NCBI GenBank assembly: GCA_964461715.1
Contig: CAYWVR010000002.1
Coordinates: 76,453 to 140,452, forward strand
From: an uncultured Anaerolineales bacterium
Lineage (GTDB): Bacteria > Planctomycetota > Phycisphaerae > FEN-1346
Reading direction: 5' to 3'
Length of the DNA: 64,000 bases
The notes below the pieces were generated by a model. That model made no database searches and had not been told where the DNA came from. It saw only the letters and a program-made list of their open reading frames with translations. This document shows positions 12,732 to 55,510 of the stretch, piece by piece; position 1 is the first letter of the stretch, and each line of letters begins with the position of its first letter. The translations under genes and the position numbers were made by a program.

Positions 12732-12741
12732 GGACGGCCCC

Positions 12742-14139: not shown

Positions 14140-14165
14140 AGCACACTTCGCTGGGAGGTTGAGCC

Positions 14166-14999: not shown

Positions 15000-15013
15000 G
15001 CCTTAGGACGCCG

Positions 15014-16232: not shown

Positions 16233-16473
16233 CCGCCGCTCGACGCCTCCGGCGCGCGGCCGGCGCCGCGCGCGGCGGGACCGGGCGAGGTCCCGCTCCA
16301 GGGCCAGAAGGTCCATCCAGGAGGGTCGGGCGACGGACTGTGGGGGACGGGCCGCGGGAGAAAAGCCGGAGGGCGCCTGCCCTCGCGGGTCGGTCCCCAG
16401 CGGTCCCATCCGAATCCCCACGTCCTGTCCTTTCGGCGGTTGCGAGCGCGGCGGGCGGCGGGCCGAAGGCATC

Positions 16474-33103: not shown

Positions 33104-33552
33104 TCCTCGTGACCGTGGGCACGACCTATTACGACGAGCTGGTGCGTGAGGTCGACCGGCTGGTGGTCGTCGGGGCCATCACCGAGCCGGTCTTCGCCCA
33201 GATCGGCATGGGGAAGTACGAGCCGCAGCACATGGAATGGACTCGCTACGTTGACCGTCTCGAGCCGCTCTATCGGGAGGCGAGCCTCGTCATCTGCCAC
33301 GGCGGCGTAGGGACGGTGTTCGAGCTGTTGGCGCTGGGGCGGCCGACGATCGCCGTCGCCAACCGGGCCCTCGCGGACGATCACCAGGCCGACCTGCTCC
33401 GCGCCATTGCCGGGCGAGGCTGGTGCACGTGCTGCTTCTCGCCGACCGAGCTCGAAGCGGCGCTCAAGACGCCCCGCCCGGCGATTCCCTATCCGGACGA
33501 GCCGGTCCTGGCAGGCCGCATCTGGGACTATCTGACCACCCCGAGGACGTGA
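33100..33552 (+). CDS. Alg13-like (EpsF/Cps14G-type, Glyco_tran_28_C) glycosyltransferase catalytic partner
   Basis: ATGA start/stop overlap with the upstream fusion gene. The sequence MILVTVGTTYYDELVREVDRL…ASLVICHGGVGTVFELLALGRPTIAVAN… is the Alg13/MurG-C-like fold. It lies immediately after the Alg14-like domain, as in Cps14F/G pairs. Confidence 0.7.
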   Translation: MILVTVGTTYYDELVREVDRLVVVGAITEPVFAQIGMGKYEPQHMEWTRYVDRLEPLYREASLVICHGGVGTVFELLALGRPTIAVANRALADDHQADLLRAIAGRGWCTCCFSPTELEAALKTPRPAIPYPDEPVLAGRIWDYLTTPRT

Positions 33553-33554
33553 CC

Positions 33555-35033
33555 ATGGACCTTCGGATGCACAAGGTGCCGGACTGGCCGAAGCTCGCCT
33601 GGGTCGCGCGCATGCGTCCCGGCGGCGCGGCCGTCGAGGCACTCCACGGCCCGTACGTGGAGCGCCGCCGGGACTGGTGCGTCGAGGCCGTGTGGGCGGG
33701 ACGCTTCGAGGAGGGCGACTTCGACCGGACGGACCTCGTCTTCGGAACGGGCGTTCGCCTCCGCGACGGCGTCGTCCGGTTCGTCAATGCGGGCACGGGG
33801 GTGGACCGCCTGTGGCACGTGGCCCACGAGGGCGGGTACGCTGTCAGCAACTCGCTGCCCGCGCTGCTGGCGGTGACGGGCCTGGCCCTCCGCGAGGACT
33901 ATACGGGCTACTCCGACGACATCCAGAGCGTCGAGGTGCGGGGCATCCGGCACTATGTCCGCGAGATTCCCTCGTCCGGGCCGCCCCTCGGCGTCCTTTA
34001 CTTCGACGACCTGGTCTATGACGGACGGACGCTCGTCGCGGCCGAGAAACCGAGCGTCGCCCCGCCCTTCCCGACCTTTGCCGCCTACGAGGCATTTCTC
34101 ATCGAGACGGCCCATGCCCTGGGCGAGAACAGCCGCGCGCGGGACCGCCGGTGGCCGGTGACCGGGATCGTCGGCGTCTCGTCGGGCTACGACTCGCCGG
34201 CCGTCGCCGTTGTCGCGCGGCACGCCGGATGCACGCGGGCGGTCACGATCCACCAGTCGCGGAGTCTCTGGCGGGGTCCGGACTCCGGGGAGCCCGTCGC
34301 GCGAGCCTTGGGGCTCCCGTGCGCCGTCTACGACCACAGCCCGCGGAACTATCGCCTGGAGCACGCCGTGTGGGCGGCCACGGGCCTGGCAGGCGGACTG
34401 AACCTCACGCTTTTCGACTACCCGGAGCCGCTGGCCATGTTCTACAGCGGCAGCTACGGCGACAAGGTCTGGGACCGGCGCCCGCACGACCTCTCGGAGC
34501 CGGTGGGCGACCGCGACCACCTGCTGGGCGAGTTCCGGCTGATCCAGGGGCTCTTCCAGTGCGTCGTCCCCTGGTGGGGCATTCACCGCGCCGGCGAGAT
34601 CAACGCCCTCGGCGCCCGCGAGGAGATGGCCCCGTGGACCCTCGGCAACTCCTACGATCGGCCGGTTGCCCGGCGGTTGGCGGAGGAGGCGGGGATCCCG
34701 CGCAAGGCCTTCGGCATCCGCAAGAAGGACACCTCCTCGAACGTGTCCTTCCTCTGGCCGCGCACGCGCGAGGCGCAGGCCCGCTTCGCGCGGTGGCTCC
34801 GAGACCGGGGCCTGGAGGCGCCGAGCCGGGCGCGCGTGGGCCTCTTCCGGAAGCTCGCCAAGCTCGAGGGGCTCATCTACTACAACCTCCCCGCGAAGCT
34901 GCGCCCCAAGCGGCGCCTCCGGCCGTGGCTGCGCCTGGCAGGGACCCGGCGGCTCTTTCAGTGGGGCAACGAGGAACTGAAGGCCGTCTATGCGGCCGGC
35001 CTGGACGCCTTTCGGCGAGAGGCATCTCCGTGA
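33555..35033 (+). CDS. asparagine-synthetase-like PP-loop (SGGxDS-type) protein lacking the N-terminal glutaminase Cys; paralogue 1
   Basis: 492 aa. …PVTGIVGVSSGYDSPAVAVVARHAG… is a degenerate PP-loop ATP-pyrophosphatase motif placed about 230 aa from the N-terminus, as in AsnB. The N-terminus is MDLRM…, with no Cys2 nucleophile. Confidence 0.5.
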   Translation: MDLRMHKVPDWPKLAWVARMRPGGAAVEALHGPYVERRRDWCVEAVWAGRFEEGDFDRTDLVFGTGVRLRDGVVRFVNAGTGVDRLWHVAHEGGYAVSNSLPALLAVTGLALREDYTGYSDDIQSVEVRGIRHYVREIPSSGPPLGVLYFDDLVYDGRTLVAAEKPSVAPPFPTFAAYEAFLIETAHALGENSRARDRRWPVTGIVGVSSGYDSPAVAVVARHAGCTRAVTIHQSRSLWRGPDSGEPVARALGLPCAVYDHSPRNYRLEHAVWAATGLAGGLNLTLFDYPEPLAMFYSGSYGDKVWDRRPHDLSEPVGDRDHLLGEFRLIQGLFQCVVPWWGIHRAGEINALGAREEMAPWTLGNSYDRPVARRLAEEAGIPRKAFGIRKKDTSSNVSFLWPRTREAQARFARWLRDRGLEAPSRARVGLFRKLAKLEGLIYYNLPAKLRPKRRLRPWLRLAGTRRLFQWGNEELKAVYAAGLDAFRREASP

Positions 35034-36448
35034 CACTTGATGCCGAGCTGATGATCGACCAGTTTATCCTGGGCCGGGACGCCGACGCGATCCCGGACGG
35101 GTGGCCCGTGCGCGCTCACGACGGCCGGCGTCTCGGCCATCACCCTCATCTGCCCGTCGCGGAGATCACCGACGGCGAGGGGACGTTCCTCGGCTGGCTC
35201 CTCGGTTGGGCCGTCGGTCCGGACGGCCGGATGGTGCGGAAGAAAGCCGTCTTCAAACAGGCTTTCGAGGCGGCGGTCGCCGAGCACGGGGGGCGCTTCG
35301 CCGCGGTGCGCTTTGCGCCGTCGGGCCCACGTTTCTACCTGGGTCCGTGCGGAGCGTTGGCGGCGGTGTACTCGCGCGAGCGAGAGGTCGTGGCGTCCTC
35401 GCTCTACATGATTCCGGGGGCGCGCGACGCCGAGACGCGCTTGATGCCCGAGCTGGGTGTGCCGGAGAGCGACCACTTCTACCCCTTCGGCCTCACCCCC
35501 CGCCGGGGGATCGAGCGACTGATCCCGCACCACTACCTCGACCTCGCGACCTGGCAGCCCGTGCGCCACTGGCCCGCCGGCGACATCCCCGAGACGCGGG
35601 ACGTCGACGCGACCGGCGAGGCGATCGGGGCGCTCGTCGAGCGGCAGATCGCGGGCGTCATCAAGGCCGACGGACCGATCTACATGTCGCTGACCGCGGG
35701 CCGGGACTCGCGGCTGATGGCGGCCTGCGCGCGGGACCATGCCGCGCACGTCACCTTCTTCACGATGATCGTACCGAGCGAGGGAGGGCGGCTGGATCGG
35801 CAGGCCGCTCGGAAGCTGGCCCGGCGCTGCGGCCTGGACCACCTCGTTCTGCCGCGCAAGACCCCCACAGAGGCCGACAAGCGCCTTCACATGCAGCGCA
35901 CAGGCGATTGCGTAGGCTCATGGCAAAACCTGGCGACGATGGGGCAACTGCCCGAGCGGCGTCCCGTGCTCCTCGGCATGGCCGGCGAGTTGGGCCGGGG
36001 GTTCCACTGGAGACGCGGTGACACCGAATCGAGCCGGATCACGCCCGCCGATCTCCTCGATCGCCGTGGCTTGCCGCACACGCGCGCCATCCTGGACCGC
36101 GCCGAGGCGTGGCTCGCCGGCGTGCCGGCAACCAACGCCCTGACCATCTGGGGCCTCTACTACCTGGAGCAGTACCTGGGGTGCTGGAGCGGACCGGCTC
36201 AGTACAACCCGCACAACGGGTGTTACCGCCTGTCGCCGTACTGCCATCGCGAGATTCACCAAGCCATGATGAGCCTGCCCCGGGAGTATCGCCTCCGCTG
36301 CCGCCTCGAGGACGACCTCGTCGGTCGGCGGTGGCCGGAGATGCTGACCGTCCCGTTCAACTGGCCGATGGGTCTGGGGCGCTACGTCGCGTTCCTGAAG
36401 CGGCGTGCGGGGAAGCTGGTGGGCAAACTCGGCGCGACCGACGCCTAG
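35030..36448 (+). CDS. asparagine-synthetase-like PP-loop protein; paralogue 2
   Basis: GTG start overlaps the upstream stop (GTGA). …DGPIYMSLTAGRDSRLMAACARDHAA… is a PP-loop-like motif at the equivalent position. The overall architecture parallels paralogue 1, and there is no N-terminal Cys. Confidence 0.5.
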   Translation: MTLDAELMIDQFILGRDADAIPDGWPVRAHDGRRLGHHPHLPVAEITDGEGTFLGWLLGWAVGPDGRMVRKKAVFKQAFEAAVAEHGGRFAAVRFAPSGPRFYLGPCGALAAVYSREREVVASSLYMIPGARDAETRLMPELGVPESDHFYPFGLTPRRGIERLIPHHYLDLATWQPVRHWPAGDIPETRDVDATGEAIGALVERQIAGVIKADGPIYMSLTAGRDSRLMAACARDHAAHVTFFTMIVPSEGGRLDRQAARKLARRCGLDHLVLPRKTPTEADKRLHMQRTGDCVGSWQNLATMGQLPERRPVLLGMAGELGRGFHWRRGDTESSRITPADLLDRRGLPHTRAILDRAEAWLAGVPATNALTIWGLYYLEQYLGCWSGPAQYNPHNGCYRLSPYCHREIHQAMMSLPREYRLRCRLEDDLVGRRWPEMLTVPFNWPMGLGRYVAFLKRRAGKLVGKLGATDA

Positions 36449-44248: not shown

Positions 44249-45606
44249 AGACCTTGCTGTTCCTGGCCGGTTTTGTGGCGGCCACCGTCGGGTGTCTCTG
44301 GTTCCCGCTGGCGGGGGTCCTGGGATACGTCCTGCACTACAGCATCGGACCGGAACGCCAGTGGTGGGAGGCCCCGATCAGCCACCTCCACCTGCGCTAC
44401 TCGTTCACGCTGGCAGCCGCCACGGCCATCGGTTTGCTGCTCCACCATCGCAAGCTCCGTTGGGGCGACCGGCTCCTGACGAAGCAGGAAGTCCTGATGC
44501 TCGTGTTCCTGGGCGTGGTGTGGCTCACGTTCCTGATGGGCGACACGACGCGGGAGTCAAGCGCGGTCGTGGATCACCCCTCCATGAAGGTCACAAAAGT
44601 TTTTATCTTCACGCTCATGTTAACACACATCGTGACGAGGCAACAAGACCTGAACCTCCTGTTCTGGGCCTTCACCAGCGGCGCTTTGATCCTCGGTCTC
44701 CAGGCTTACTACACGCCGCGGTACATGTTCATGCAAGGGCGGCTCGAGACGATCGGCGGCCCGGACTTCGCCGAGGCCAACAGCCTGGCGGCGTACCTGG
44801 CGGCCCTGCTGCCGATCATCGGCGTCCAGTTCATGCGGAGCCGCTGGCCGGCCCGCATCGCGTGCCTGGCGGCGGGGGGGCTCGCCTGCAACGCCATCAT
44901 CCTGACCCGAAGCCGCGGGGCGATCGTCGCGCTGGCCGCCGGGGGAATCGCGGCCCTCTTCATGGCCCCGAAACGGTACCGCGCAGCGGTGGCCGTCGGG
45001 CTGGTCGTGGCTCTGGTCGGGTTCGTGTATCTCGGCGACGTCGGCTTCATGGGCCGCATGAGCACGCTGAACTCCCCCGCGGGCGAACTCGACGAGTCCG
45101 CCCAGAGCCGCATCGCCATCTGGCGGGGAGGCCTGAAGATGATCGCGGCCCACCCGCTGGGCGTCGGGCCGGGCAACTTCCTCCAGACCATCGGCCACTA
45201 CGCGCCGAACCACGCGAATCGCGACGCACACAGCACGCTCATCCGCTGCGCCGCCGAGCTGGGCTTGGTGGGGCTCATCGTGCTCATCGTGCTGATCGTC
45301 AACGCCTTCCGCGTCTTGCGCAACACCCACGCCCGTCTCGTGCGCCACCGGTCCAAGGCCGACGCCCCCCTCCTCCTCTACACGTACGCCGCCATGTTGG
45401 CCCTGATCATCTACCTGATATGCGGCTTCTTCGGCTCGTTCGTGTACATCGAGGTCTTCTGGTGGCTGCTCGCGCTGCCCGTGTGCCTGAGCCGCGCCGT
45501 CGAGAACGCGGTCGCGCAGCCCTTGGAGGAGGGTGCGCCGAGCCGCAAACGCGCCGTCTCCCGCACGCGAAGCCGGACGCCCCGACCGCAAGTGGAGGTC
45601 ACGTGA
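44236..45606 (+). CDS. O-antigen ligase/Wzy-family polysaccharide polymerase (Wzy_C domain membrane protein)
   Basis: About 10-12 TM helices. The central large periplasmic loop …ILTRSRGAIVALAAGGIAALFM… and …IAHPLGVGPGNF…HSTLIRCAAELGLVGLIVL… are typical of the Wzy_C/O-antigen ligase family. Confidence 0.7.
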   Translation: MPPLKTLLFLAGFVAATVGCLWFPLAGVLGYVLHYSIGPERQWWEAPISHLHLRYSFTLAAATAIGLLLHHRKLRWGDRLLTKQEVLMLVFLGVVWLTFLMGDTTRESSAVVDHPSMKVTKVFIFTLMLTHIVTRQQDLNLLFWAFTSGALILGLQAYYTPRYMFMQGRLETIGGPDFAEANSLAAYLAALLPIIGVQFMRSRWPARIACLAAGGLACNAIILTRSRGAIVALAAGGIAALFMAPKRYRAAVAVGLVVALVGFVYLGDVGFMGRMSTLNSPAGELDESAQSRIAIWRGGLKMIAAHPLGVGPGNFLQTIGHYAPNHANRDAHSTLIRCAAELGLVGLIVLIVLIVNAFRVLRNTHARLVRHRSKADAPLLLYTYAAMLALIIYLICGFFGSFVYIEVFWWLLALPVCLSRAVENAVAQPLEEGAPSRKRAVSRTRSRTPRPQVEVT

Positions 45607-46982
45607 CCGTGCCGCACGCACTCCGAACCGCGATCTCCGCCGCCTATCACGCCCTCGCGCCGGCCCTCCGGCCGCGCGGGTTCATGGGCCGGTTTCGCGC
45701 GGCCCGGGCGGCCCGGGACGGGGCGGAATGGGACCCGCCCGAGGCGGTCTGGGCCCGTCAGCGCGACCGTATCAACGCGCTGCTCGAAACGGCGCGGACG
45801 CACGTGCCGTACTACCGTCGTCTGGCGGCGGTCGGCCGGATCCCCCCCCATATCGAGCGGCCGGAGGACCTCGCCGAGGCGCCGATCCTCACGAAGGCAA
45901 TCATCCGGGCCGAAGGGCGCGACCTGCTGGCCGAGAACTTCCCGCCCGAACGACTCCACGCCACGGCGACCGGCGGCTCGACCGGCGAACCGCTCCACTT
46001 CTGGAACGACGCCGACGCCGTCCTCGCCGCCAACGCCGGCGAAGCCTGGGCCCTGTCCGTTGCCGGCGTCGGCCTGGCGGACCCCGTGGCGTACCTCTGG
46101 GGGGCGGCCCGGTTCGAGCGGGCGATGGGGCGGGACCTCAAGGACCACCTCGTCCAGCTCCTGAACAACCGGTGCGTCGTCGACTGCTTCCACATGAAAC
46201 GCGACGATCTGGCCGCCGCCCATCGCCGGTTCACGCGGTTCGGCCCGGCGGCGCTGCTCGGGTACTCGAGCGCCCTGGTGGAGCTGGCCCGGTACCTCAA
46301 GACCGAGGGCCGCCGCCCGAGCTACCCGGACCGCGCGGTCATCAGCGCGGCCGAGGTCCTCGACGACGTCTCGCGCGAGGTGCTGGAGGAGACTTTCGGC
46401 GGGCCCGTCTTCGACCGGTACGGAAGCCGCGAGATGGGCCTCATCGCCATGGAGTGCGATCGGCATCGGGGCCTGCACGTCGACGCGGAGAACGTTTTCG
46501 TCGAGCTGGTCGAGGCGCCGGACGCGCCGGGCCTTTCGCGCATCGTCGTTACACGGCTGAACCAGTTCAGCATGCCGTTCCTGCGGTACGACAGCGGCGA
46601 CCTGGCCGAGGGCCCCCTCGAGACGTGCCCCTGCGGACGGGGGTACGCGGTGCTCAAGCGCGTCGTTGGACGCGTCACCGAGACGATCCGGTTCCCGGAC
46701 GGCGGCTCGCTGCCCGGCGAGATCTTCCCGCACCTCTTCAAGGACTGCGGGATCCTCTCGTATCGGGTGGTGCAGGCTGAGGACTACGCCGTCGACGTCG
46801 AGCTCGTGCGCACGCCCGACCAGACCGAGGCCCAGGACGCCACCCTCCGCCGCATCGTCCGCGAGCATCTCGGCAAGGACGTGCCGGTGACGTTCCGCTA
46901 CGCCGAGGCGATCGAGCGATCGCGCACGGGCAAGCTCCTGCCCGTCAGCAGCCATGCCCCGCGCGACGGAGGCTCCAGATGA
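45603..46982 (+). CDS. CapK/PaaK-like adenylate-forming enzyme (second of three in window)
   Basis: GTG start overlapping the upstream stop. …HATATGGSTGEPLHFW… is an AMP-binding-like motif. …FLRYDSGDL… (PaaK-type hinge; compare RYRTGD) and the C-terminal …RSRTGKLLPV… are present. Confidence 0.7.
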   Translation: MTVPHALRTAISAAYHALAPALRPRGFMGRFRAARAARDGAEWDPPEAVWARQRDRINALLETARTHVPYYRRLAAVGRIPPHIERPEDLAEAPILTKAIIRAEGRDLLAENFPPERLHATATGGSTGEPLHFWNDADAVLAANAGEAWALSVAGVGLADPVAYLWGAARFERAMGRDLKDHLVQLLNNRCVVDCFHMKRDDLAAAHRRFTRFGPAALLGYSSALVELARYLKTEGRRPSYPDRAVISAAEVLDDVSREVLEETFGGPVFDRYGSREMGLIAMECDRHRGLHVDAENVFVELVEAPDAPGLSRIVVTRLNQFSMPFLRYDSGDLAEGPLETCPCGRGYAVLKRVVGRVTETIRFPDGGSLPGEIFPHLFKDCGILSYRVVQAEDYAVDVELVRTPDQTEAQDATLRRIVREHLGKDVPVTFRYAEAIERSRTGKLLPVSSHAPRDGGSR

Positions 46983-48496
46983 AGGATGCAAGGATGAGCC
47001 ACCCCCGGGTCGCGATGGCGCGAAGCGACGGGGACCCCGCGCGCCCCTACCCCGAGTTCCCCTACGACCCGGGGGAGGCGTACCCGGAGCTCGCGGGGCG
47101 CGGCGTCGGGACAGTCGCCCCGCCCAACCCGGTCTACGCGGCCGTGCGGGCGGCGCTTGCGCGTCTCGGTTTCGACCGGGACCGCGCGGGCTCACCCGAG
47201 TGGGACCCCCTCGGCGACCTCATCGAACCCGGGCAGCGGGTCCTCGTCAAGCCCAACTGGGTCCGCCACGATGCGGCCGACGGCGGGCCGGGGCCGTGCC
47301 TGCGGACGCACACGAGCGTGCTCCGCGCGGTCCTCGATTACGTGCTTCTCGCCTTAAAGGGCGATGGCCGCGTCATCGTCGGGGACGCCCCCCTCCAATC
47401 GGCCGACGGGGGACGCCTCTTCGCCCAGACGCGCATCCACGAACTGCTCGACCGTCTCGACGCCGGCGGCATCGAGATCACGGTCCGCGACTTCCGCGAG
47501 AACGTCTGCGACCTGGACGCGCGCGGCCGCATCGTCGGCCACCGCAAGCTCGACGGCGACCCCGACGGATACGCGACCGTGGACCTCGGCGCGGAGAGCC
47601 TGTTCGGGCCGGTGGACGAGGCCTTCGAGCGGTTCCGCGTCACGAACTACGACCCGGCCGTCATGCGCGCGCACCACGCGCGCGGGCGCCACGAGTACCT
47701 CATCGCCGGATCGGTGCTCGCCTCCGACACCGTCGTCAGCGTCCCCAAGCTGAAGACCCATCGCAAGGCGGGCCTGACGTGTGCCCTGAAGAACGTCGTC
47801 GGCATCAACGGGAGCAAGGACTACCTGCCGCACCACCGCAAAGGCCCCGTCGACGAGGGCGGCGACGAGTACGAAAGACGGTGCGTATGGAAGCGGCTCG
47901 CGTCGCACTGCACGGACCTTGTCGAGTCCGACCCGAGCCCCGGCCTGCGGGCGACGGCCCGGCTGGTCCTTCGCGTCGCGCGGCGGGTGGCCCGAAGCGC
48001 CGCCCCGGACCCGTACACCGAGGGGAGCTGGTTCGGCAACGATACCGTCTGGCGGACCGTGCTGGACCTGAATCGCGTGTTGGTCTTCGCGCGGCCGGAC
48101 GGGACGCTCGCGCCGGAGCCTCAGCGGCGCGTGCTGCACCTGGTCGACGCGATCGTCGCCGGCGAGGGCGAAGGGCCGCTGGTCCCCGACCCGGCGCCGC
48201 TCGGCCTCGTCCTGGCGGGGACGGAGGCCGCCGCCGTGGACGCCTTTGCCGCACGGCTGGCGGGTCTCGACCCGGAGAAGATTCCACTCGTCCGGAACGG
48301 CCTCGCACAGCGCGACGGCCTCGCCGAGAAGATGCGCTTCGTCCGCGACGACGCCGACGCGTCTCTGGCCCTGCATGAGGTCCGGCCCGTGCGCTGTCTC
48401 AGACCGCCCGCCGGGTGGGCCGGACACGTCGAGCTCGAGACCTGCCCCCTCCGCGAGACCGACATTCCGGTGGCCGGCTCGGTCCCCGAGGAGTGA
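46979..48496 (+). CDS. conserved hypothetical cytoplasmic protein (505 aa; possibly DUF362-like)
   Basis: Contiguous with flanking genes (4-nt overlaps) and has coding-type codon bias. The motif …VLVKPNWV… and a Gly-rich segment are suggestive only. No catalytic family assigned. Confidence 0.45.
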   Translation: MKDARMSHPRVAMARSDGDPARPYPEFPYDPGEAYPELAGRGVGTVAPPNPVYAAVRAALARLGFDRDRAGSPEWDPLGDLIEPGQRVLVKPNWVRHDAADGGPGPCLRTHTSVLRAVLDYVLLALKGDGRVIVGDAPLQSADGGRLFAQTRIHELLDRLDAGGIEITVRDFRENVCDLDARGRIVGHRKLDGDPDGYATVDLGAESLFGPVDEAFERFRVTNYDPAVMRAHHARGRHEYLIAGSVLASDTVVSVPKLKTHRKAGLTCALKNVVGINGSKDYLPHHRKGPVDEGGDEYERRCVWKRLASHCTDLVESDPSPGLRATARLVLRVARRVARSAAPDPYTEGSWFGNDTVWRTVLDLNRVLVFARPDGTLAPEPQRRVLHLVDAIVAGEGEGPLVPDPAPLGLVLAGTEAAAVDAFAARLAGLDPEKIPLVRNGLAQRDGLAEKMRFVRDDADASLALHEVRPVRCLRPPAGWAGHVELETCPLRETDIPVAGSVPEE

Positions 48497-48498
48497 TC

Positions 48499-50739
48499 AT
48501 GCCCGCAGGCGACGCCCACATCCTGCACGTCGTCCCCGGCCTGGTTCCGGGCGGCATGGAGCTGACGCTCGTGCGCATCATTCGCGGGCTCCAGGGGCGG
48601 GACGGGTTGCGCCACTCGGTCGTGGCCCTGAAGGGCGACCCGGTCCTCGCGCCCGAGCTTCCGCCGGACGTGCCGGTCCACGGTCTGCGGTCGAGGCCGA
48701 ACGAGCCGGCCCTGCCGTGGCGGCTGTGGCGGCTCATGCGGGAGGTCCGCCCGACCGTCATCCACGCCCGTAACTGGGGCGGGTGGCCGGACGTGGCCCT
48801 GGCGCGACTCGCCCTTTGGCCGCCCGTCCCCCTCATCTTCAGTTTCCACGGCTTCGCCGACCCGCGCAAGACGCCGTTGCGGCGGCGCCTGGCGTTCCGC
48901 GCCCTCAGCCGGATGACTACCTGCCTCTTCACGGTGAGCGAAAACGCCAGGAACATGCTCGTCGAACGGTTCGGCTGGCCCAGGCACCGCGTCGGCATCA
49001 TCCCCAACGGCGTGGACGTCGACCGGTTCCGGCCGGGACCCGTCGCGCGCGAGCCGGACGGGGAAATCGCCATCGGAACCGTGGGAAGCCTGACCCCCGT
49101 CAAGAACCACGCCCTGCTCGTGCGGGCGTGTGCGGCCATGCGAGCTGCCGGCGTCGCGTGCCGACTCCGAATCGCGGGCGAGGGCCCCGAGCGGCGGCGG
49201 TTGGAGGAGCTGGCCCGGTCGCTCGACTATGCCGCCCACCTCGACCTGCCGGGCCACGTCGAGGACGTGCCCGGCTTTCTCCGGACGCTCGACGTCTTCT
49301 CTCTCCCGAGCGCGAGCGAGGCACATCCCAACGCGCTCCTGGAAGCCATGGCCTGCGGCCTTCCGTGCGTCGCGACGCGCGTGGGCGGGGTCGAGGAAAT
49401 CCTGGGGCGAGGGGCCTTCGGACGCATCGTCGAGCCGGGCGACGAGGCGGGTCTTGCAGAGGTTCTGTCGGACCTCGCGGGCGATGCCGAAGCACGAAGG
49501 AAGCTCGAGGCCGCAGGTCGGCAGCGCGTCCGCGACGCCTACAGCCTCGAAGGGATGCTCGAGACGTACGCGGAGCTCTATACGCGGGTCTCCGAGGGCG
49601 GGCTCAGGACGCCCGTCGAGCCCCGCGGCTTCGACCCCGTCGCCAACCGGCCGCGCGTCCTGATGCTCGGGCCGCTCCCGCCGCCCATCGGGGGCATGGC
49701 CACCGTGACGGAGAACCTCCGCACAAGCGCGCTGGCGCGCCGGTGCCGCCTGACGGTCCGCGAGAACGGCAAGGCCACGCCGGAGGGACGGCCCCTGGCC
49801 CGGGGCGTCGCGGCGCAGATGAAGCTGCTGGCGGACGTCGCGGGCCTCATCGTCCGCGGGCGGTCGCGGATCGTGCACTTCCAGACGTGCGCCCTGTTCA
49901 CCTTTTGGCGCGACATGGTGCACGCGGCGGTCGCGCGCCTCGCGGGGGCCCACGTCGTGTTCCACGTGCACGACGGGACGTTCGAGTCGTTCCTGGGCGA
50001 CGCGCCGCCGCTTAAGAAGGCCCTGCTGTCGCTCGCGCTGCGCGCGGCGTCGCGGGTAATCGTCCTGTCGGAGGAAACGCGTGAACGGCTCGCGCCGCTG
50101 GAACGGCGGGCCCGGTGGGCCGTCGTCTCGAACGGCGTGCCGGTGCCGTCGGCCGCCGAGACCGAGCGCGCGCCGCGGTTCCTTTTCATGGGGAACCTGA
50201 CTCGCCGCAAGGGGGCCTACGACCTGGTGGAGGCGACCTCCCGGGCCTTTGCAAACGGGGGCCCGGGGGAGGTGCTCCTGGCCGGCGGGGAGCGCGACGC
50301 GGGCGACCGCCAGGCCCTCCTCGACCACATCGCCGCTTGCGGGTGCGCGGAGCGGGCCCGGCTGCTTGGCCTCATCCAGGGCCCCGAGAAGGAGGCGGCC
50401 CTGGCGTCGGCCGGCGTCCTGGTCCTCCCGAGCTACGCCGAGGGCCTGCCGATGGCGATCCTCGAAGGGATGGCCTACGCCCTGCCCGTCATCGCCACGC
50501 GCGTCGGCGCGGTGCCGGAGGCCGTGGCCGAGGGCGTCGAAGGGTTCCTCATCGAGCCCGGCGACGTCGAAGCCCTGGCCGACCGGATGCGCCGCCTCGC
50601 CGAGGACGCAGCGCTCCGCCGCCGCATGGCCCAGGCCGCCCGCCGCCGCGCCCGGGCGCAGTACGGCATGGACGTGATGGTGGACCGGATTCTGGCCCTG
50701 TATCGCGAGATTCTGACGCCCGACCGAGGCCGCGCATGA
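48499..50739 (+). CDS. tandem double GT4 glycosyltransferase (two complete GT-B modules in one 746-aa polypeptide)
   Basis: Module 1 is …HVVPGLVPGGMEL… to …SEAHPNALLEAMACGLPCVATRVGGVEEIL… Module 2 is …RVLMLGPLPPPIGGMATV… to …YAEGLPMAILEGMAYALPVIATRVGAVPEAV… A GGAG SD precedes the ATG. Confidence 0.8.
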   Translation: MPAGDAHILHVVPGLVPGGMELTLVRIIRGLQGRDGLRHSVVALKGDPVLAPELPPDVPVHGLRSRPNEPALPWRLWRLMREVRPTVIHARNWGGWPDVALARLALWPPVPLIFSFHGFADPRKTPLRRRLAFRALSRMTTCLFTVSENARNMLVERFGWPRHRVGIIPNGVDVDRFRPGPVAREPDGEIAIGTVGSLTPVKNHALLVRACAAMRAAGVACRLRIAGEGPERRRLEELARSLDYAAHLDLPGHVEDVPGFLRTLDVFSLPSASEAHPNALLEAMACGLPCVATRVGGVEEILGRGAFGRIVEPGDEAGLAEVLSDLAGDAEARRKLEAAGRQRVRDAYSLEGMLETYAELYTRVSEGGLRTPVEPRGFDPVANRPRVLMLGPLPPPIGGMATVTENLRTSALARRCRLTVRENGKATPEGRPLARGVAAQMKLLADVAGLIVRGRSRIVHFQTCALFTFWRDMVHAAVARLAGAHVVFHVHDGTFESFLGDAPPLKKALLSLALRAASRVIVLSEETRERLAPLERRARWAVVSNGVPVPSAAETERAPRFLFMGNLTRRKGAYDLVEATSRAFANGGPGEVLLAGGERDAGDRQALLDHIAACGCAERARLLGLIQGPEKEAALASAGVLVLPSYAEGLPMAILEGMAYALPVIATRVGAVPEAVAEGVEGFLIEPGDVEALADRMRRLAEDAALRRRMAQAARRRARAQYGMDVMVDRILALYREILTPDRGRA

Positions 50740-51983
50740 CCCCAACCCACACAACCACCGACCCCCGCCGCGTCCTCGCCATCGTCGGCAACACGCAGGT
50801 CGGCCTGTGGGTGGCCCGGAGCCTGGGCCGGGCGGGCCTCCACGTGGAGGCCGTCGCGACCAGCCCCGACGCGCTCGTCGCGCGCAGCCGCTTTGCGGAC
50901 GGCGTCCACGTCGTCGAGGGCCCGAGCGACGAGGGGGCGTGGATCGACCGGATCGAGGCGCTCGCGCGGGAGCGGGGCGTCGGCAGCATCCTCGCCATTG
51001 CCGAAGCCTACCATGCCGCGCTCATCCGCCACCGCGACCGCTTCGAGCCCGACGTCCACGTCTTCAGCCCGCCCGCCGAGTGCTTCCGCCGGGCCACCGA
51101 CAAGGACGAGATGCACCGCCTCTGCGAGGAGCTGGGCGTGCCCGTCGCGAAGGGCATGACCCTTGACGCCCTTCTCGCCCGGACCGGCGAGGACCCGCTC
51201 CACTATCCCCTGGTCCTTCGGACCCGCAACCAGAACATCGAGACGGGCCGGACCCCGTGGAAAGCCGCCTACGCCCGCGATCGTGCGGAGCTCGAGCGCC
51301 TGGCCGCAGAGGTCGAGGCCATCACGTCGAACGTCCTCGTCCAAGAATACCACGCGGGCGTCGAGGACCATATCCAGGTCCTGATGCACGAGGGCATGCC
51401 GTTCATGGTGGGCGAGTACATCGGCGAGCACCATTTCCCGCTCGCGGGCGGCGTGACGGTGCAGCGGGTCACCTGCCGCCATGAGCCGCTCGAGCGGGAC
51501 GCCGTGCGGCTGCTGGAGGCCCTCCAGTGGGACGGCATCGCGGGAGTCCAGTTCCACTACGACCCGGCGACGGACGAGTACATCTTCCTCGAGATCAACC
51601 CGCGGTTCATCGGCGGGTTGCCGACGGTGATCATGGCGGGCTTCGACGCGCCGTACCTTCTCTGGCAGGGCCGCTTCGAACCCGAGCGGATGGAGCGGAC
51701 GCGGTACCGGCAGGGCATGCGGACGCGGATCATGGGCGGCGATGCGAACTGGATGCTGGGGATGATGCGAGGCGACCCCCTGCCGCCCGACCAGCGTCGC
51801 CTCGGCCGCGCGAGCGCCGCCCTGCGGTTCCTCTGGAACTCGGGGCCATGGACGAAGGACGACGTCTTCTGGTGGCGGGACCCGCGGCCGTTCCTGGCAG
51901 ACCTTCGTCAGATGGTCGCCAAGGTCCGCAGCCGCCGCGTCGACCTCATCGGGAACCCCGAGACCGCGGAGGTCGACGCGTGA
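50736..51983 (+). CDS. ATP-grasp superfamily ligase
   Basis: ATGA overlap with the upstream gene. …YPLVLRTRNQ…LVQEYHAG…GVQFHYDPATDEYIFLEINPRFIGG… matches the ATP-grasp central and C-domain (the E…N pair binding Mg-ATP). Confidence 0.7.
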   Translation: MTPTHTTTDPRRVLAIVGNTQVGLWVARSLGRAGLHVEAVATSPDALVARSRFADGVHVVEGPSDEGAWIDRIEALARERGVGSILAIAEAYHAALIRHRDRFEPDVHVFSPPAECFRRATDKDEMHRLCEELGVPVAKGMTLDALLARTGEDPLHYPLVLRTRNQNIETGRTPWKAAYARDRAELERLAAEVEAITSNVLVQEYHAGVEDHIQVLMHEGMPFMVGEYIGEHHFPLAGGVTVQRVTCRHEPLERDAVRLLEALQWDGIAGVQFHYDPATDEYIFLEINPRFIGGLPTVIMAGFDAPYLLWQGRFEPERMERTRYRQGMRTRIMGGDANWMLGMMRGDPLPPDQRRLGRASAALRFLWNSGPWTKDDVFWWRDPRPFLADLRQMVAKVRSRRVDLIGNPETAEVDA

Positions 51984-52984
51984 AGCCGGGCCTCTTCCTC
52001 ACGTTCGACGTCGAGTGCAGCATGGGCGGCGCGTTCGAGGACCCGTCGGCGCTGCCGGTGCCGCCGGCGCGGGCCGTGTGGGGCGAGTACGGCGGCCGGT
52101 CGCTGGGTCTGGGGCGGATTCTGGAGGTCCTCGGCCGACACAGCCTCAAAGGCACGTTCTTCGTCGAGCCGTTCATGGAGGAGCAGGGCTATCCCGGCGA
52201 GGGCAAGCGGATCACGGACGCCCTCGCCGAGGCCGGCCAGGACGTCGAGCTCCACATCCACCCGTGCCACAGCTTCTACGCGAAGCACCTGCGGGGCGAG
52301 CCGTACCCGCCAACCGACACGATGGCCGACCTGGGGCCCCGGATGCAGACGGCGCTTTTTGCCGAGGGCGCCGACCGCCTGGCCTCCTGGACCGGTCGGC
52401 GCCCGGTGGCGTTCCGGGCCGGCAACATGGGGGCGTCGGAGGCGACGCTCGAAGCCCTGGCCGCGGCGGACCTCGCGCTCGATTCGAGCTACACGTTTCC
52501 CTACGCGGGGGGCCAGTGCCGCTTCCCGCCCGGCGATCCGTACAACGGTTCGCGGCGGTACGGCGAGGTGGTGGAGCTCGCGCTCTCGGGCTTCACGCAG
52601 CCACGTTTCCCGGGCCTGCACCCGGCGAAACCGCTGGACCTGGCGGGCGTCTCGTTCGCGGAGATGCGCGAGGCGACGCTTCGAATCATCGAGGCCGGGG
52701 CCGACGCGGTGATGATCCTTCATCCGTTCAGCCTCCTGAAGGTCCGGAACCTGGCGTATGATGGAGGCCGGCCGGACCGGGTCGTCGTCCGGCGGTTCGA
52801 GCGATTTTGCCGCTGGCTCGACGAGGTGAGGGACACCGTCGGCGCGCGGACGTTCGCGGACGTGGCGACGGCGCTCGCCGACGGACGCGATGAGCCGCGC
52901 GAGGCGCCGCCGCCGCGGCTGGGCCTTGGGCGGGCGCTCATGCGAAAGGCCGTCCAGGCCTGGAACCGGCCGCATTGGACGTGA
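51980..52984 (+). CDS. polysaccharide deacetylase family protein (NodB-like, PEP-CTERM-locus subfamily type)
   Basis: GTG overlapping the upstream stop. LFLTFDVE…SLKGTFFVEP… (NodB motifs 1 and 2: TFDD-like, H-x-x-H region …ELHIHPCH…) and …AFRAGNMG… are present. 334 aa. Confidence 0.7.
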   Translation: MKPGLFLTFDVECSMGGAFEDPSALPVPPARAVWGEYGGRSLGLGRILEVLGRHSLKGTFFVEPFMEEQGYPGEGKRITDALAEAGQDVELHIHPCHSFYAKHLRGEPYPPTDTMADLGPRMQTALFAEGADRLASWTGRRPVAFRAGNMGASEATLEALAAADLALDSSYTFPYAGGQCRFPPGDPYNGSRRYGEVVELALSGFTQPRFPGLHPAKPLDLAGVSFAEMREATLRIIEAGADAVMILHPFSLLKVRNLAYDGGRPDRVVVRRFERFCRWLDEVRDTVGARTFADVATALADGRDEPREAPPPRLGLGRALMRKAVQAWNRPHWT

Positions 52985-53006
52985 GACTCGCGAGTGGGAG
53001 CCGACG

Positions 53007-54386
53007 ATGATGCCGACCGTGGCCCGAACGATCTACCGCCTCCAGGAGCGGGTGCTGAAGCGTCCGACGTTCGCCGTCTTCCGCGAGCTCGAGGCCAGCC
53101 AGCACGGGCCGCGCGAGCGCCGCGAGACGTTTCAGCTCGATCGGTTGCAGTCGCTGGTCGCGGCGGCCCATGCCCACACGCCGTATTGGCGCGAGGTGAT
53201 GGACGCCGAAGGCTTCGGGCCGCACGACATCCGATCGCTCCGGGACGTCGGCCGGTTCCCGCTCCTGGAGAAGGAGACGCTCCGGTCGCGGCGCGAGGAG
53301 ATGGTCTGGCGCGACGAGGGCCCCGGCCTCAAGGTCGTCCGCACAAGCGGGTCGACGAACGAGGCCCTCCAGTTCTATACGAGCGCGTCGCGCGAGGCGG
53401 CGATCAACGCCGCCCGCATGCGCGGGCACCGGTGGATCGGCATCGAGAAGGGCGACCGCGAGGTCTACTTCTGGGGCTCGCCCGTCGAGCTCGACACCCA
53501 GGGCCGCCTCAAGCACTGGCGCGACCGGCTCTGCAACGAGCCCCTCACGAACGGGTTTGAGATCACCCTCGACCGCGTCCGAGACTTCGTCGAGGATTGG
53601 AAGCGCTGGCGGCCGAAGTGCATCTTCGGCTATCCGAACAGCTTCGTCCTGACGGCCCGCATGGCCGAGCAGCTGGACCTCGATCTGACGGTCCTCCGGG
53701 ACCGGGGCCTCAAGTGCATCGCGACCACCAGCGAGATGCTCGGCGAGGTGAACCGCCGCATCATCGAGGAGGCCTTCGGCGTCCCGTGCTACGACTCCTA
53801 CGGCCTGCGGGAGGCGGGCCTGGTGGGCCACGAGTGCCGCGAGAAGGTCATGCACACCATCGACGAGCAGGTGCTCCTCGAGACGATCGACCCGGCCACA
53901 CTCGAGCCGACCGACGGCGAAGGCGAGCTGGTCGTGACGAGCCTGATCAGTCGGGCCATGCCCGTGATCCGCTACCGGACGGGCGACATCGTGACGCTCG
54001 GCGAGGGCCCGTGCGCGTGCGGGTTGGACCTGGGGCGGATCGAGATCAGCGGGGGACGGATCGCGGACTTCGTCGTCACGCGGGCGGGCAAGTGGGTGGC
54101 GGGGTACTTCATCATCTACATCTGCCGCTCGACGCCCGGCGTCGTCAAGTTCCAGGTCCGCCAGGAGCGGATCGGGGCGCTGCGGGTCCTCCTGGTCGTG
54201 GACGAGAACTTCCCCGAGGACGGGTGCGAACGCGTCACACGGGCCGTCGAGCAGCGCCTGGGCGGCGACGACGAGGTCGAGGTCGAGGTCGTCGAGGACA
54301 TCGCCCCGGCCCCCTCGGGCAAGTACCGGCCAGTCATCAGTCGCGTGGCCGAGGAACGGATGGAGACGGGAAAGCCGGGGATGTAG
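53007..54386 (+). CDS. CapK/PaaK-like adenylate-forming enzyme (third in window)
   Basis: …VVRTSGSTNEALQFY…, …YDSYGLREAGLVGHEC… and the hinge IRYRTGDIV are present. Confidence 0.75.
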   Translation: MMPTVARTIYRLQERVLKRPTFAVFRELEASQHGPRERRETFQLDRLQSLVAAAHAHTPYWREVMDAEGFGPHDIRSLRDVGRFPLLEKETLRSRREEMVWRDEGPGLKVVRTSGSTNEALQFYTSASREAAINAARMRGHRWIGIEKGDREVYFWGSPVELDTQGRLKHWRDRLCNEPLTNGFEITLDRVRDFVEDWKRWRPKCIFGYPNSFVLTARMAEQLDLDLTVLRDRGLKCIATTSEMLGEVNRRIIEEAFGVPCYDSYGLREAGLVGHECREKVMHTIDEQVLLETIDPATLEPTDGEGELVVTSLISRAMPVIRYRTGDIVTLGEGPCACGLDLGRIEISGGRIADFVVTRAGKWVAGYFIIYICRSTPGVVKFQVRQERIGALRVLLVVDENFPEDGCERVTRAVEQRLGGDDEVEVEVVEDIAPAPSGKYRPVISRVAEERMETGKPGM

Positions 54387-54388
54387 CC

Positions 54389-55510
54389 CTACTCCGCCCG
54401 CCCGGCCCGCACCAGCGAGGCCAGCGCGCGGCGGATTTTGGACCACCGAAGGGTTTTCAGGCGAGACCACCGAAAATGCGCGAAGATGGGACGCATCGTC
54501 GTCACCCAGAAGTACGCGCGCCGGTAGCGGCCGAGGGTCACCCCGCGCGCAAGGGCCCGGCCGGCGCGGCCGACCATCCGGTCGCCGATGCCGCTCGGGT
54601 CGAAGGTCACGGTCCGGCCCGAGTCGACGACCGGCCGCGGGCGAGCCTCGCAAACCCCGTCCGGGCCCAGCGTCGCCTCCACCAACAGGCCCGTGCGTCC
54701 GCGGCGATCCCAGACGATGCGGTCGCCGCTCGTAAAGGGCACGTCGTCGGCGACGAAGTTGCCGAGCGAGTAGGCGATGGGGACGCCCTCGTGGACCTCG
54801 AAGCCCTGAAGCACGTGAGGATGGTGGCCGAGGACGAGCGACGCCCCCGCCTCGGCGAGGGCCCGGGCGTTGCCAACTTGCCGCGGCGAGGGGATCGGCA
54901 GCCGCTCCTCGCCCCAGTGCAGCGAGACGATGACGTGATCGACCTCCTCGCGCAGCTGCCGCACGTCCGTGGCGAGCCGTTCGACGTCCAGCGGTGCGAC
55001 GCCCGGGCTCTCGGGGCCCGCGAATCGGTTCGGTCCGCTCCGCTCGTCAACCGCGCCGATGAAGGCGAGGCGCAGACCGCGGACCTCGACGAACGCTGGG
55101 GCGGCGGCCTCGGCCCGCGTCTCGCCCGCGCCGAAATGCGCGACGCCCATCTCGTCCAGGAGGCCCCGCAGCTTCCGGAACCCCGCCTCCAGCCCGTCGA
55201 ACGCGTGGTTGTTGGCAAGCGTCACGACCGTGATACCGCTCGCGAGGACCGCGCGGATCGTCTCCGGCGGCACGATGACGCGCGGCTCGGTCGGCACGAC
55301 GCCCGCCCCGGCCTCGACGGTGCATTCGAGGTTCGCAAGGACGCAGTCGTAGCCCCGCCAGAGGAGCGCCAGACCGGCGGCCAGGGCCTCGGCGGCGCGA
55401 AGCGGCGTGCCGTCGGGGGTCGTCGTCAGGAGCAGGTCGCCGACGGCCGCGAGGCGCACCGGCCGCTCCTCGCTCGCTGGGTCGCGTTGGCTCACTCGTC
55501 TCTCCGACAT
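54389..55510 (-). CDS. CapA/PGA_cap-family protein (poly-gamma-glutamate-capsule-synthesis CapA-like, metallophosphatase-fold)
   Basis: MSERR…LAAVGDLLL…TLANNHAFDG…HWGEERLPIPSPRQV…LVLGHHPHVLQGFEVHEGVPIAYSLGNFV… are PGA_cap signature blocks. This is the C-terminal 373 aa of an 811-aa track ORF whose upstream part is antisense artefact. Confidence 0.7.
   Translation of the reverse strand: MSERRVSQRDPASEERPVRLAAVGDLLLTTTPDGTPLRAAEALAAGLALLWRGYDCVLANLECTVEAGAGVVPTEPRVIVPPETIRAVLASGITVVTLANNHAFDGLEAGFRKLRGLLDEMGVAHFGAGETRAEAAAPAFVEVRGLRLAFIGAVDERSGPNRFAGPESPGVAPLDVERLATDVRQLREEVDHVIVSLHWGEERLPIPSPRQVGNARALAEAGASLVLGHHPHVLQGFEVHEGVPIAYSLGNFVADDVPFTSGDRIVWDRRGRTGLLVEATLGPDGVCEARPRPVVDSGRTVTFDPSGIGDRMVGRAGRALARGVTLGRYRRAYFWVTTMRPIFAHFRWSRLKTLRWSKIRRALASLVRAGRAE

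Follow-up and report, generated by a model that had tools for sequence, protein, structure and literature searches.

A conserved planctomycete gene block that may decorate a glycan with amino acids, located in a PEP-CTERM/exosortase island

Introduction

What is the function of four neighbouring genes, encoding an ATP-grasp ligase, a NodB-like hydrolase, a CapK-like enzyme and a CapA-like protein, in an EPS island of a planctomycete genome? These four enzyme types have not been described before as working together. The initial annotation of the window (the whole 64,000-nucleotide stretch of DNA analysed here) read them as a pathway, in which an N-acetylated amino sugar is deacetylated and then acylated with an amino acid or a small acid. 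Decoration of polysaccharides with amino acids is known in bacteria, while assignment of the enzymes has only begun: VimA/VimE in 2020, Cj1438C in 2022 and VpsH in 2026. A K40 serine transferase was reportedly the subject of Amor et al. (1999), and Iyer et al. (2009) reportedly treated amidoligases. To our knowledge, it has been an open question since 2006 what exosortases attach their substrates to.

Results

GC3 frame analysis reproduced the exact limits of all four genes, and catalytic motifs are kept in each of them. The plus strand carries the ATP-grasp ligase (50736-51983, 415 aa, ATPgrasp_Ter/PRK12767-like), the CE4-fold (NodB-like) hydrolase of an unnamed subfamily (51980-52984, 334 aa) and the CapK/PaaK-like adenylate-forming enzyme (53007-54386, 459 aa). 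The CapA/MslH-like PGA_cap protein of calcineurin-like fold (54389-55510, minus strand, 373 aa, without membrane anchor) is convergent, its stop codon lying 2 nt from that of CapK, tail to tail. Neither transmembrane segments nor signal peptides were found in the four proteins, which are predicted to be soluble and cytoplasmic and, for this reason, to act before export.

Directly upstream lies a double GT4 glycosyltransferase gene of the conserved block (48493-50739, plus strand), stp2-like and composed of two tandem GT4 units according to Pfam and NCBIfam. Overlaps of 4 nt connect it to the ATP-grasp gene and the ATP-grasp stop to the CE4 start, so that GT4, ATP-grasp and CE4 are, as judged from these junctions, translationally coupled; the same coupling is seen in other loci. 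The first three of the four genes are judged to be coupled in this way to the upstream glycosyltransferase. PGA_cap is on the opposite strand and therefore not co-transcribable with them. The scan of positions 50000-58500 for promoters and terminators gave nothing exceeding shuffle expectation.

The grouping of these genes, initially described as a sub-cluster, is far beyond chance. The order Wzy_C, GT4, GT4, ATP-grasp, CE4, CapK, PGA_cap (minus strand), FemAB recurs in about 13 other independent loci, which come from various planctomycete lineages (Stieleria mannarensis JC639 is one of the carriers) and show 47-77% identity of the block proteins; 8 loci were found by the genome scan. ATP-grasp orthologues share 59-77% of their residues with the protein of the window and form one tight cluster. 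The GT4 unit is represented in related loci by one fused gene or by two separate ones, directly upstream of ATP-grasp. The Wzy_C/O-antigen-ligase-like membrane protein of the block (44254-45606, plus strand) scored 92.7 bits with TIGR03097, below the cutoff; Pfam Wzy_C is matched by the identical gene of locus L001, and Wzy_C is present in 13 of 14 loci. Between Wzy_C and GT4 the plus strand of the window contains a second PaaK/F390-like gene (45603-46982), having an orthologue (PaaK1, 63% identity) in locus L005, followed by a DUF362 protein gene (46994-48496). This PaaK/F390-like gene is one of two further CapK-like genes which were initially placed in the island; the other (12742-14139) is a distant relative lying outside. 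UDP-GlcNAc 2-epimerase is encoded beside the block in 3 loci. The PGA_cap gene adjoins a FemAB gene in 10 related loci and is missing in 4 of 14, the Stieleria block having an EEP-family phosphoesterase instead.

In nearly all loci the deacetylase and ATP-grasp genes are neighbours that overlap by 4 nt. Five fusion proteins, in which ATP-grasp is joined to a canonical NodB/CE4 domain (Polysacc_deac_1), occupy the same position in the block; these two observations are the reason to consider both enzymes as functionally linked. More distant relatives combine ATP-grasp with CE4 and GT4, with a FemAB-type GNAT domain, or with LMWPc and GT2.

The ATP-grasp protein belongs to its superfamily by the three-domain fold and by the Mg-ATP-binding E-x-N motif with the catalytic Arg (E286, N288 and R290 in FLEINPRF), invariant among 40 homologues. 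At E <= 0.01 Pfam reported only ATPgrasp_Ter, ATP-grasp_3 and CPSase_L_D2; assignment to TupA-like sugar amidoligases of the Cj1438C type was rejected, as ATPgrasp_TupA was not matched at this threshold. The nearest sequence relatives are biotin carboxylase, PurK, PurT and CPS enzymes, while structural neighbours include the amino-acid ligases BL00235 and PylC, and identity to any solved structure is only 13-21%. The search for the closest characterised homologue found no close one, and the protein resembles no characterised sugar ligase.

The deacetylase label was justified in respect to fold. The AF2 model (pLDDT 90) has the CE4 (beta/alpha)7 barrel, and Foldseek matched it to 3rxz (E = 1e-11), HP0310 (3e-9), ArnD (2e-7) and PuuE. 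In sequence, the window protein is under the Pfam threshold, scoring 17.8 bits with Polysacc_deac_1 against the gathering score of 23.1; PF01522 was matched at E <= 0.1 by 41 of 41 members of its family, weakly (best E = 8e-9). Invariant in the family are D10 and E12 (TFDVE), H92 and H94 (HIHPCH), R146 (FRAGN) and H248 (ILH). Compared with canonical motifs TFDDG (Asp-Asp), H(S/T)xxH, RxPY and LxH, the first two are non-canonical. ArnD, one of the top five fold matches, deformylates an amino sugar that is linked to a lipid, and the window protein could also be a deformylase or other hydrolase instead of a deacetylase. The XrtA-system deacetylase TIGR03006 was rejected, with no match at E <= 1 for the window protein and one (E = 0.026) among 41 homologues.

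The CapK-like label stood up to verification: PaaK structures matched at E = 3e-24, and a precomputed match to Pfam CapK_C (PF27533) exists for the identical L001 protein and orthologues. The ANL core motifs TSGSTNE, YGLREAG, YRTGD and SGKYRPV are present. Resemblance to PaaK is confined to the superfamily level, since 93 bits with NCBIfam TIGR02155 against the cutoff of 646 rejects a true PaaK.

The convergent protein was identified as PGA_cap (200 bits in Pfam against the cutoff of 27), and it matches MslH (8gq9) at E = 7e-14. The metal ligands of MslH are E44, N87, H259 and H261; its catalytic dyads are H88/D91 and H295/D11. Its residues E44, N87, H88, D91, H259 and H295 align with E62, N100, H101, D104, H198 and H231 of PGA_cap; D25 is probably the seventh match of eight, and H261 falls on G200. 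The aligned residues are conserved in 5 homologues. With NCBIfam MslH the protein scored 65 bits against the cutoff of 700. Epimerase and phosphoesterase are both conceivable functions of PGA_cap. The data led to rejection of a poly-gamma-glutamate system: PgsB (Mur-ligase-like) and PgsC families are absent among annotated window genes, and there is no membrane anchor.

As initially noted, the sub-cluster lies within an EPS island, which is a PEP-CTERM/exosortase polysaccharide locus and, according to its gene content, a true PEP-CTERM system. Its exosortase (57873-59549, plus strand) is fused to an EpsI domain (169 bits with Exosortase_EpsH, 100 bits with DUF3485/EpsI). Named subtypes (XrtA, XrtD and others) were rejected, because every NCBIfam subtype cutoff was missed (at best 218 bits versus 400 for XrtD; 127 versus 208 for XrtA) and only the general TIGR02602 passes. 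Three PEP-CTERM proteins are encoded on the minus strand (19368-20354, 20588-21496 and 21559-22236); they end in VPEP or APEP, a hydrophobic helix and an Arg/Lys-rich tail, and are the presumed exosortase substrates. The VimA-like FemAB-family XrtA/PEP-CTERM-associated protein (28596-29645, plus strand; 325 bits with TIGR03019, cutoff 260; 68 bits with Acetyltransf_6) is a probable partner of the CE4 enzyme. A match to Asn_synthase at 35051-36448 gave only 20-25 bits, the AsnB-like proteins being weak and devoid of the glutaminase domain. Within the window we found neither WbpA/B/D/E sugar-nucleotide genes nor WbpS (TIGR03108) amidotransferase, nor genes for amino-sugar or uronic-acid nucleotide sugars. 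In the literature, nothing relevant was found that combines ATP-grasp with exosortase.

Discussion

Based on these data one can assume, with moderate confidence and inferring every step, that the four genes form a conserved cytoplasmic glycan-tailoring block, the product of which is a repeat unit decorated with an amino acid or short peptide. Most likely, judging by its gene content, the block deacetylates an amino sugar and then attaches amino acids. The GT4 pair would assemble a short lipid-linked oligosaccharide containing an N-acetylated amino sugar and possibly a uronic acid, and CE4 would remove the N-acetyl group at the cytoplasmic face, like VimE and ArnD. The freed amine would then be re-acylated with an amino acid by ATP-grasp (through acyl-phosphate), by the FemAB-type enzyme (from aminoacyl-tRNA), or by both in turn. 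The CapK-like enzyme might adenylate a carboxylate, either at sugar C6 or of the amino acid, for a further amide, like VpsH, and PGA_cap would be an accessory metal enzyme, epimerising the attached residue like MslH or removing phosphate. The repeat unit would finally bear an amino acid or short peptide; the zwitterionic EPS initially expected is purely conjectural. Speaking against the scheme are the distance of ATP-grasp from solved structures and from TupA-like amidoligases, the TFDVE motif and subthreshold Pfam score of CE4, the lack of amino-sugar and uronic-acid nucleotide-sugar genes in the window, and the opposite strand and incomplete distribution of PGA_cap.

Precedents exist for separate parts of this scheme. 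VimE (CE4) and VimA, which matches TIGR03019, make a 2-N-seryl or 2-N-glycyl sugar, the linking sugar used in type IX secretion (PMC7468200). The glycine amide on the lipid-linked GulNAcA disaccharide of a Vibrio polysaccharide requires the CapK/PaaK-like VpsH, a putative enzyme (PMC13463779), and GlcA is amidated by the ATP-grasp domain of Cj1438 (PMC11800379). MslH, a PGA_cap homologue, is a metal-dependent epimerase of the C-terminal residue, and CapA was proposed to act alike (PMC10406935, PMC8179263). The fusions together with the first three precedents support the connection between deacetylation and ligation, and this part of the initial reading, also favoured by gene adjacency, is retained, while its assignment of particular enzymes to particular acylations is not supported. 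Attachment of amino acids as such agrees with the precedents, but the one that concerns an amine is of FemAB/VimA type, an enzyme missing from the initial reading, and that for CapK concerns a uronate carboxyl.

There is a small though real possibility that the block builds an aminoacyl- or peptidyl-amino-sugar nucleophile, the free amine of which would take over the C-terminus of PEP-CTERM proteins after cleavage, so that they become amide-linked to the glycan by exosortase-EpsI. This is a specialised form of the glycan-tailoring scheme. Its parallels, similarly tentative, would be, for type IX secretion, the Wbp/Vim linking sugar and, for sortase, the pentaglycine cross-bridge of lipid II. 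In the window and in loci L003, L004 and L013 the immediate neighbours of the block are the fused exosortase-EpsI and a gene for a PrsT-like TPR protein, and the three PEP-CTERM proteins and the TIGR03019 FemAB protein are encoded in the same island. Identity of 59-77% is unusually high for glycan decoration enzymes, and Veith et al. put this idea forward with respect to exosortase loci and their FemAB, deacetylase and AsnB genes (PMC7468200). However, exosortase is missing near the block in at least 7 loci for which the sequence extends 5-10 kb downstream, and the Wzy_C gene and the flippase are equally consistent with an ordinary polymer.

It is unlikely, in our estimation, that after deacetylation the acetyl group is exchanged for a small acid in place of an amino acid, with ATP-grasp installing a formyl, carboxyl/carbamoyl or short acyl group by PurT-, PurK- or CPS-type chemistry and CapK activating an organic acid. 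This would conform to the neighbours of ATP-grasp in sequence and Foldseek comparisons (biotin carboxylase, PurK, PurT, CPS), which activate bicarbonate or formate, and to PaaK relatives, mostly activating aromatic or short organic acids. Quite improbable is plain partial de-N-acetylation giving a cationic polymer like PNAG or Pel, in which case ATP-grasp, CapK and PGA_cap would serve an unrelated small metabolite or poly-amino-acid. The CE4 fold and the naming of PGA_cap after poly-gamma-glutamate systems fit it, but deacetylases of PgaB, IcaB and PelA type are extracytoplasmic, whereas the window enzyme has no signal peptide; fusions and conserved 4-nt overlaps bind ATP-grasp to CE4 and glycosyltransferases; a PgsB/PgsC-like (Mur-ligase-type) gene is absent among annotated window genes and PGA_cap has no PgsA-type anchor.

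The gene block is conserved across Planctomycetota, and fusions tie its ATP-grasp to a deacetylase. Since it stands beside an exosortase in several genomes, it is a definite candidate, open to testing, for the pathway that makes the acceptor. If this is true, planctomycetes would have in it their equivalent of the Wbp/Vim linking sugar and the lipid II cross-bridge of sortases. The block also offers a setting to examine CapA-like proteins as epimerases versus phosphoesterases.

Among known systems, canonical XrtA/PEP-CTERM EPS loci (Haft 2006, PMC1569441) share with the island PEP-CTERM proteins, exosortase, EpsI, PrsT-like TPR and FemAB (TIGR03019), as well as stp1/stp2 GT4, chain-length determinant, tyrosine kinase and ATPase. 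Unlike them, the window has exosortase fused to EpsI and below every subtype cutoff; where they have TIGR03006 deacetylase and TIGR03108 amidotransferase, it has CE4, ATP-grasp, CapK and PGA_cap. In contrast to CapA/PgsA, the window PGA_cap has neither a membrane anchor nor PgsB/PgsC partners; it differs from MslH in the absence of lasso-peptide genes from the window and in Gly replacing H261, as in canonical CapA (HWGxE). The Campylobacter jejuni Cj1438 C-terminal amidoligase (PMC11800379), forming a sugar amide, is likewise an ATP-grasp enzyme of a polysaccharide locus, but it is TupA-like and fused to GT2, unlike the ATPgrasp_Ter/PRK12767-like window protein; Cj1435 phosphatase, acting after Cj1438, is a possible analogue of PGA_cap, the EEP enzyme or LMWPc. 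VpsH of Vibrio cholerae (PMC13463779), likened by family, is a putative CapK/PaaK-like adenylate-forming enzyme from an EPS locus of Wzx/Wzy type. Its target would likewise be an intermediate still linked to lipid and not yet exported, but it works with no partner of the ATP-grasp, CE4 or PGA_cap kind. The Wbp/Vim system of Porphyromonas gingivalis and Tannerella forsythia (PMC7468200) comprises VimE CE4, VimA FemAB-like transferase and WbpS amidotransferase. The window has no Wbp genes, its CE4 is of a different, unnamed subfamily, and ATP-grasp, CapK-like and PGA_cap proteins have no Wbp/Vim counterpart. Both, nevertheless, combine a cytoplasmic CE4 and a TIGR03019-type FemAB in a glycan locus tied to sortase-like protein anchoring, and the block would follow the same logic of deacetylation and subsequent aminoacylation.

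Results

Since the G+C content of the window is about 70%, raw lists of open reading frames were mostly noise; gene limits in the flagged interval were resolved by third-position GC frame analysis. The limits that the initial annotation had assigned to four genes at 50736–55510 were matched exactly: an ATP-grasp protein of the ATPgrasp_Ter type (50736–51983, + strand, 415 aa), a CE4-fold hydrolase (51980–52984, +, 334 aa), a CapK-like (PaaK/F390-like) adenylating enzyme (53007–54386, +, 459 aa) and a PGA_cap protein (54389–55510, − strand, 373 aa). The ATP-grasp gene shares 4 nt with the end of the double-GT4 gene upstream of it (48493–50739), and the CE4 gene in turn shares 4 nt with the ATP-grasp gene. 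The genes for the CapK-like and PGA_cap proteins converge tail to tail with 2 nt between their ends. None of the four products was predicted to have a transmembrane segment or signal peptide, so that they should act on nucleotide- or lipid-linked precursors inside the cytoplasm.

Family searches upheld the ATP-grasp, CapK-like and PGA_cap labels. The ATP-grasp protein scores 42 bits with ATPgrasp_Ter, which is above the cutoff, and retains the invariant motif E286-x-N288-x-R290. Neither the PDB sequence search nor Foldseek found a close characterised relative: the top sequence match was the uncharacterised 2pn1 (E = 5e-7), and biotin carboxylase, PurK, PurT and CPS enzymes led the Foldseek matches at 14–21% identity. 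A TupA-like assignment, of the Campylobacter sugar amidoligase type (PMC11800379), was dropped after the Pfam search. The substrate to be activated may be an amino acid or, as in the nearest relatives, a small acid (for example formate or bicarbonate).

The name “NodB deacetylase” holds at the level of family and fold, but the window protein itself stays below the threshold of Pfam Polysacc_deac_1 (17.8 against 23.1 bits). PF01522 was matched by all 41 of its 41 homologues, and its structural model (pLDDT 90) matches the CE4 structures 3rxz, HP0310, ArnD and PuuE. Judged by the invariant residues T8-F-D10-V-E12, H92-x-H94, R146 and H248, the active site is complete-looking but non-canonical, and the group removed may be acetyl or another acyl. 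Identity with TIGR03006, the deacetylase of classical XrtA loci, was ruled out by the NCBIfam model search. The CapK-like protein has every core adenylation motif and a precomputed CapK_C match on record; it scores far under the PaaK equivalog cutoffs and was rejected as a true PaaK.

The PGA_cap protein reaches 200 bits in Pfam. Its alignment with the epimerase MslH shows that E44, N87, H88, D91, H259 and H295 are kept, while the position of MslH H261 is occupied by Gly, as in canonical CapA; the aligned residues are kept in five homologues. The protein may be an epimerase or a phosphoesterase. A poly-gamma-glutamate system was rejected, the protein having no membrane anchor and the PgsB/PgsC partners being absent among the annotated genes of the window. 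PGA_cap proteins also keep a basic C-terminal tail, LRWSRLKxLRWxxVRRALA, and wherever the gene is present (in the window and the related planctomycete loci L003–L006, L011 and L013–L015) it is encoded on the other strand and meets the CapK-like gene tail to tail. Strand and tail together suggest separate regulation and perhaps association with the membrane or a partner protein.

Fourteen loci were compared: the window, eight obtained by genome scan and the remainder by contig look-ups. Orthologues of the ATP-grasp protein, hundreds of metagenomic proteins with 59–77% identity to it, formed essentially one cluster when the library was clustered at 50% identity, with the next relatives at about 30%. 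Annotations place homologues in the Planctomycetes, Phycisphaerae or Pirellulales. The order Wzy_C, GT4, GT4 (fused or split), ATP-grasp, CE4, CapK-like was registered in 13 of 14 loci; PGA_cap comes next within the block in 10 of 14, on the opposite strand every time, and a FemAB-type (Acetyltransf_6) gene flanks the block in the same proportion (10/14). The 4-nt overlap of the ATP-grasp and CE4 genes is kept in other loci.

Recurring neighbours were drawn from L011, L014, L015 and L016 and from the contig that carries P0054. A UDP-GlcNAc 2-epimerase gene (PF02350) flanks the block in three loci, which would fit an amino sugar of the ManNAc type. VanZ-LLP1 recurs beside the block in three loci and SAM methyltransferases in several; in L016 a B12-binding radical SAM pair sits between CE4 and CapK.

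The most telling result is a set of five fusions (P0241, P0390–P0393; 769–790 aa, 53–55% mutual identity), where an ATP-grasp orthologue is joined to a canonical NodB domain (motifs TFDDG and HTHRH). The P0391 fusion occupies the ATP-grasp position in an otherwise identical block. Among distant relatives ATP-grasp is fused with CE4 and GT4, with a FemAB-type GNAT, or with an LMW phosphatase with or without GT2. Such fusions link this family of ATP-grasp proteins with de-N-acetylation, glycosyl transfer and transfer of the FemAB type, and together with the kept gene order they speak for the coupling of deacetylation with ligation put forward in the initial annotation, whose interpretation is borne out in part. 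A second CE4 gene, of the window type, follows the ATP-grasp::NodB fusion. There is also a large family of paralogues that share about 30% identity with the window ATP-grasp (P0256, P0260, P0297 and L009:4224-6101), in which the ATP-grasp domain is joined to an LMW phosphatase domain and sometimes to a GT2 too; its member L009:4224-6101 lies inside the block of the cultured Stieleria mannarensis JC639, where PGA_cap is lacking and the other genes include an EEP-family phosphoesterase, two copies of CE4 and two methyltransferases.

The block is part of a complete PEP-CTERM/exosortase EPS island extending from position 22380 to beyond 64000. The island encodes an initiating phosphoglycosyl transferase (22380–23036), a Wza-like exporter, a chain-length determinant, a system ATPase and a tyrosine kinase, a FemAB-family protein above the TIGR03019 cutoff, an stp1 GT4, also above cutoff, and several more glycosyltransferases, a PssD/PssE pair among them. 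There are also a MOP flippase, a Wzy_C-like protein, a PaaK-like + DUF362 pair, the double GT4 and the four focal genes, then a secreted GH42-like protein, an exosortase-EpsI fusion and a very large PrsT-like TPR protein. Just upstream, three proteins of the minus strand (19368–22236) end in VPEP/APEP followed by a hydrophobic helix and a tail rich in Arg/Lys, and by these C-termini are PEP-CTERM substrates; their genes are consecutive and adjoin that of the initiating transferase. The exosortase-EpsI fusion (57873–59549, +) scores below every named subtype cutoff (best XrtD, 218 against 400 bits) although the substrates bear classical PEP motifs, and is probably an undescribed planctomycete subtype. 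The GH42-like protein (55577–57742, +), with a signal-peptide-like N-terminus, is encoded between PGA_cap and the exosortase, at a position taken in related loci by a second FemAB-type gene. Two tandem AsnB-like proteins (33549–36448, +) have PP-loop-like motifs SGYDS and TAGRDS, match Asn_synthase weakly and lack the glutaminase domain; in the island they may represent additional enzymes that amidate carboxylates. Two additional CapK-like genes had been placed in the island: the one at 45603–46982 is indeed inside, but the other, a distant PaaK/F390-like relative (12742–14139), lies outside, between Amidohydro_2 (11805–12731) and a ThiF/E1-like adenylyltransferase (14166–14999). Opposite this group are three paralogous small proteins (15014–17382), one with a PRK14852-like N-terminal match, and the whole set at 11805–17382 could form a system for adenylation or conjugation.

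Discussion

According to the best-supported reading, the focal proteins would tailor a lipid-linked oligosaccharide in the cytoplasm. The CE4 enzyme would strip an N-acetyl group, and the ATP-grasp, the FemAB-type enzyme or both would then couple an amino acid to the freed amine. The CapK-like enzyme would make a further amide via an acyl-adenylate, with PGA_cap as a putative accessory metal enzyme. For every step there is experimental precedent in other systems. VimE (CE4) and VimA, a match to TIGR03019, together yield sugars with a 2-N-seryl or 2-N-glycyl group, which are the anchor site of type IX secretion cargo (PMC7468200). The glycine amide on the lipid-linked GulNAcA disaccharide of Vibrio polysaccharide requires the PaaK/CapK-like VpsH (PMC13463779), and in Cj1438 an ATP-grasp domain amidates glucuronate (PMC11800379). 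MslH, which is homologous to PGA_cap, epimerises a C-terminal residue in a Ca-dependent manner, and CapA has been proposed to work like it (PMC10406935, PMC8179263).

One can also assume that the block builds the acceptor for exosortase-mediated protein attachment. This fits the window and three other loci (L003, L004 and L013), these 4 of 14 having the exosortase-EpsI fusion and the TPR gene directly after the block. The assumption is weakened, however, by the many loci without an adjacent exosortase, in several of which none is present within 5–10 kb downstream, and we consider it unlikely. A literature search for ATP-grasp enzymes linked with exosortase loci found none.

Compared with the Wbp/Vim pathway, which makes the linking sugar of type IX secretion, the focal system has in the window neither Wbp genes nor a WbpS-type amidotransferase. 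Its deacetylase is distinct from the TIGR03006 enzyme of classical XrtA loci, its ATP-grasp does not belong to the TupA-like type of the Campylobacter sugar amidoligase, its CapK-like enzyme falls outside PaaK, and the features that mark PGA systems are missing from its CapA-like protein. The focal system would work like known amino-acid tailoring pathways and is a member of none of them.
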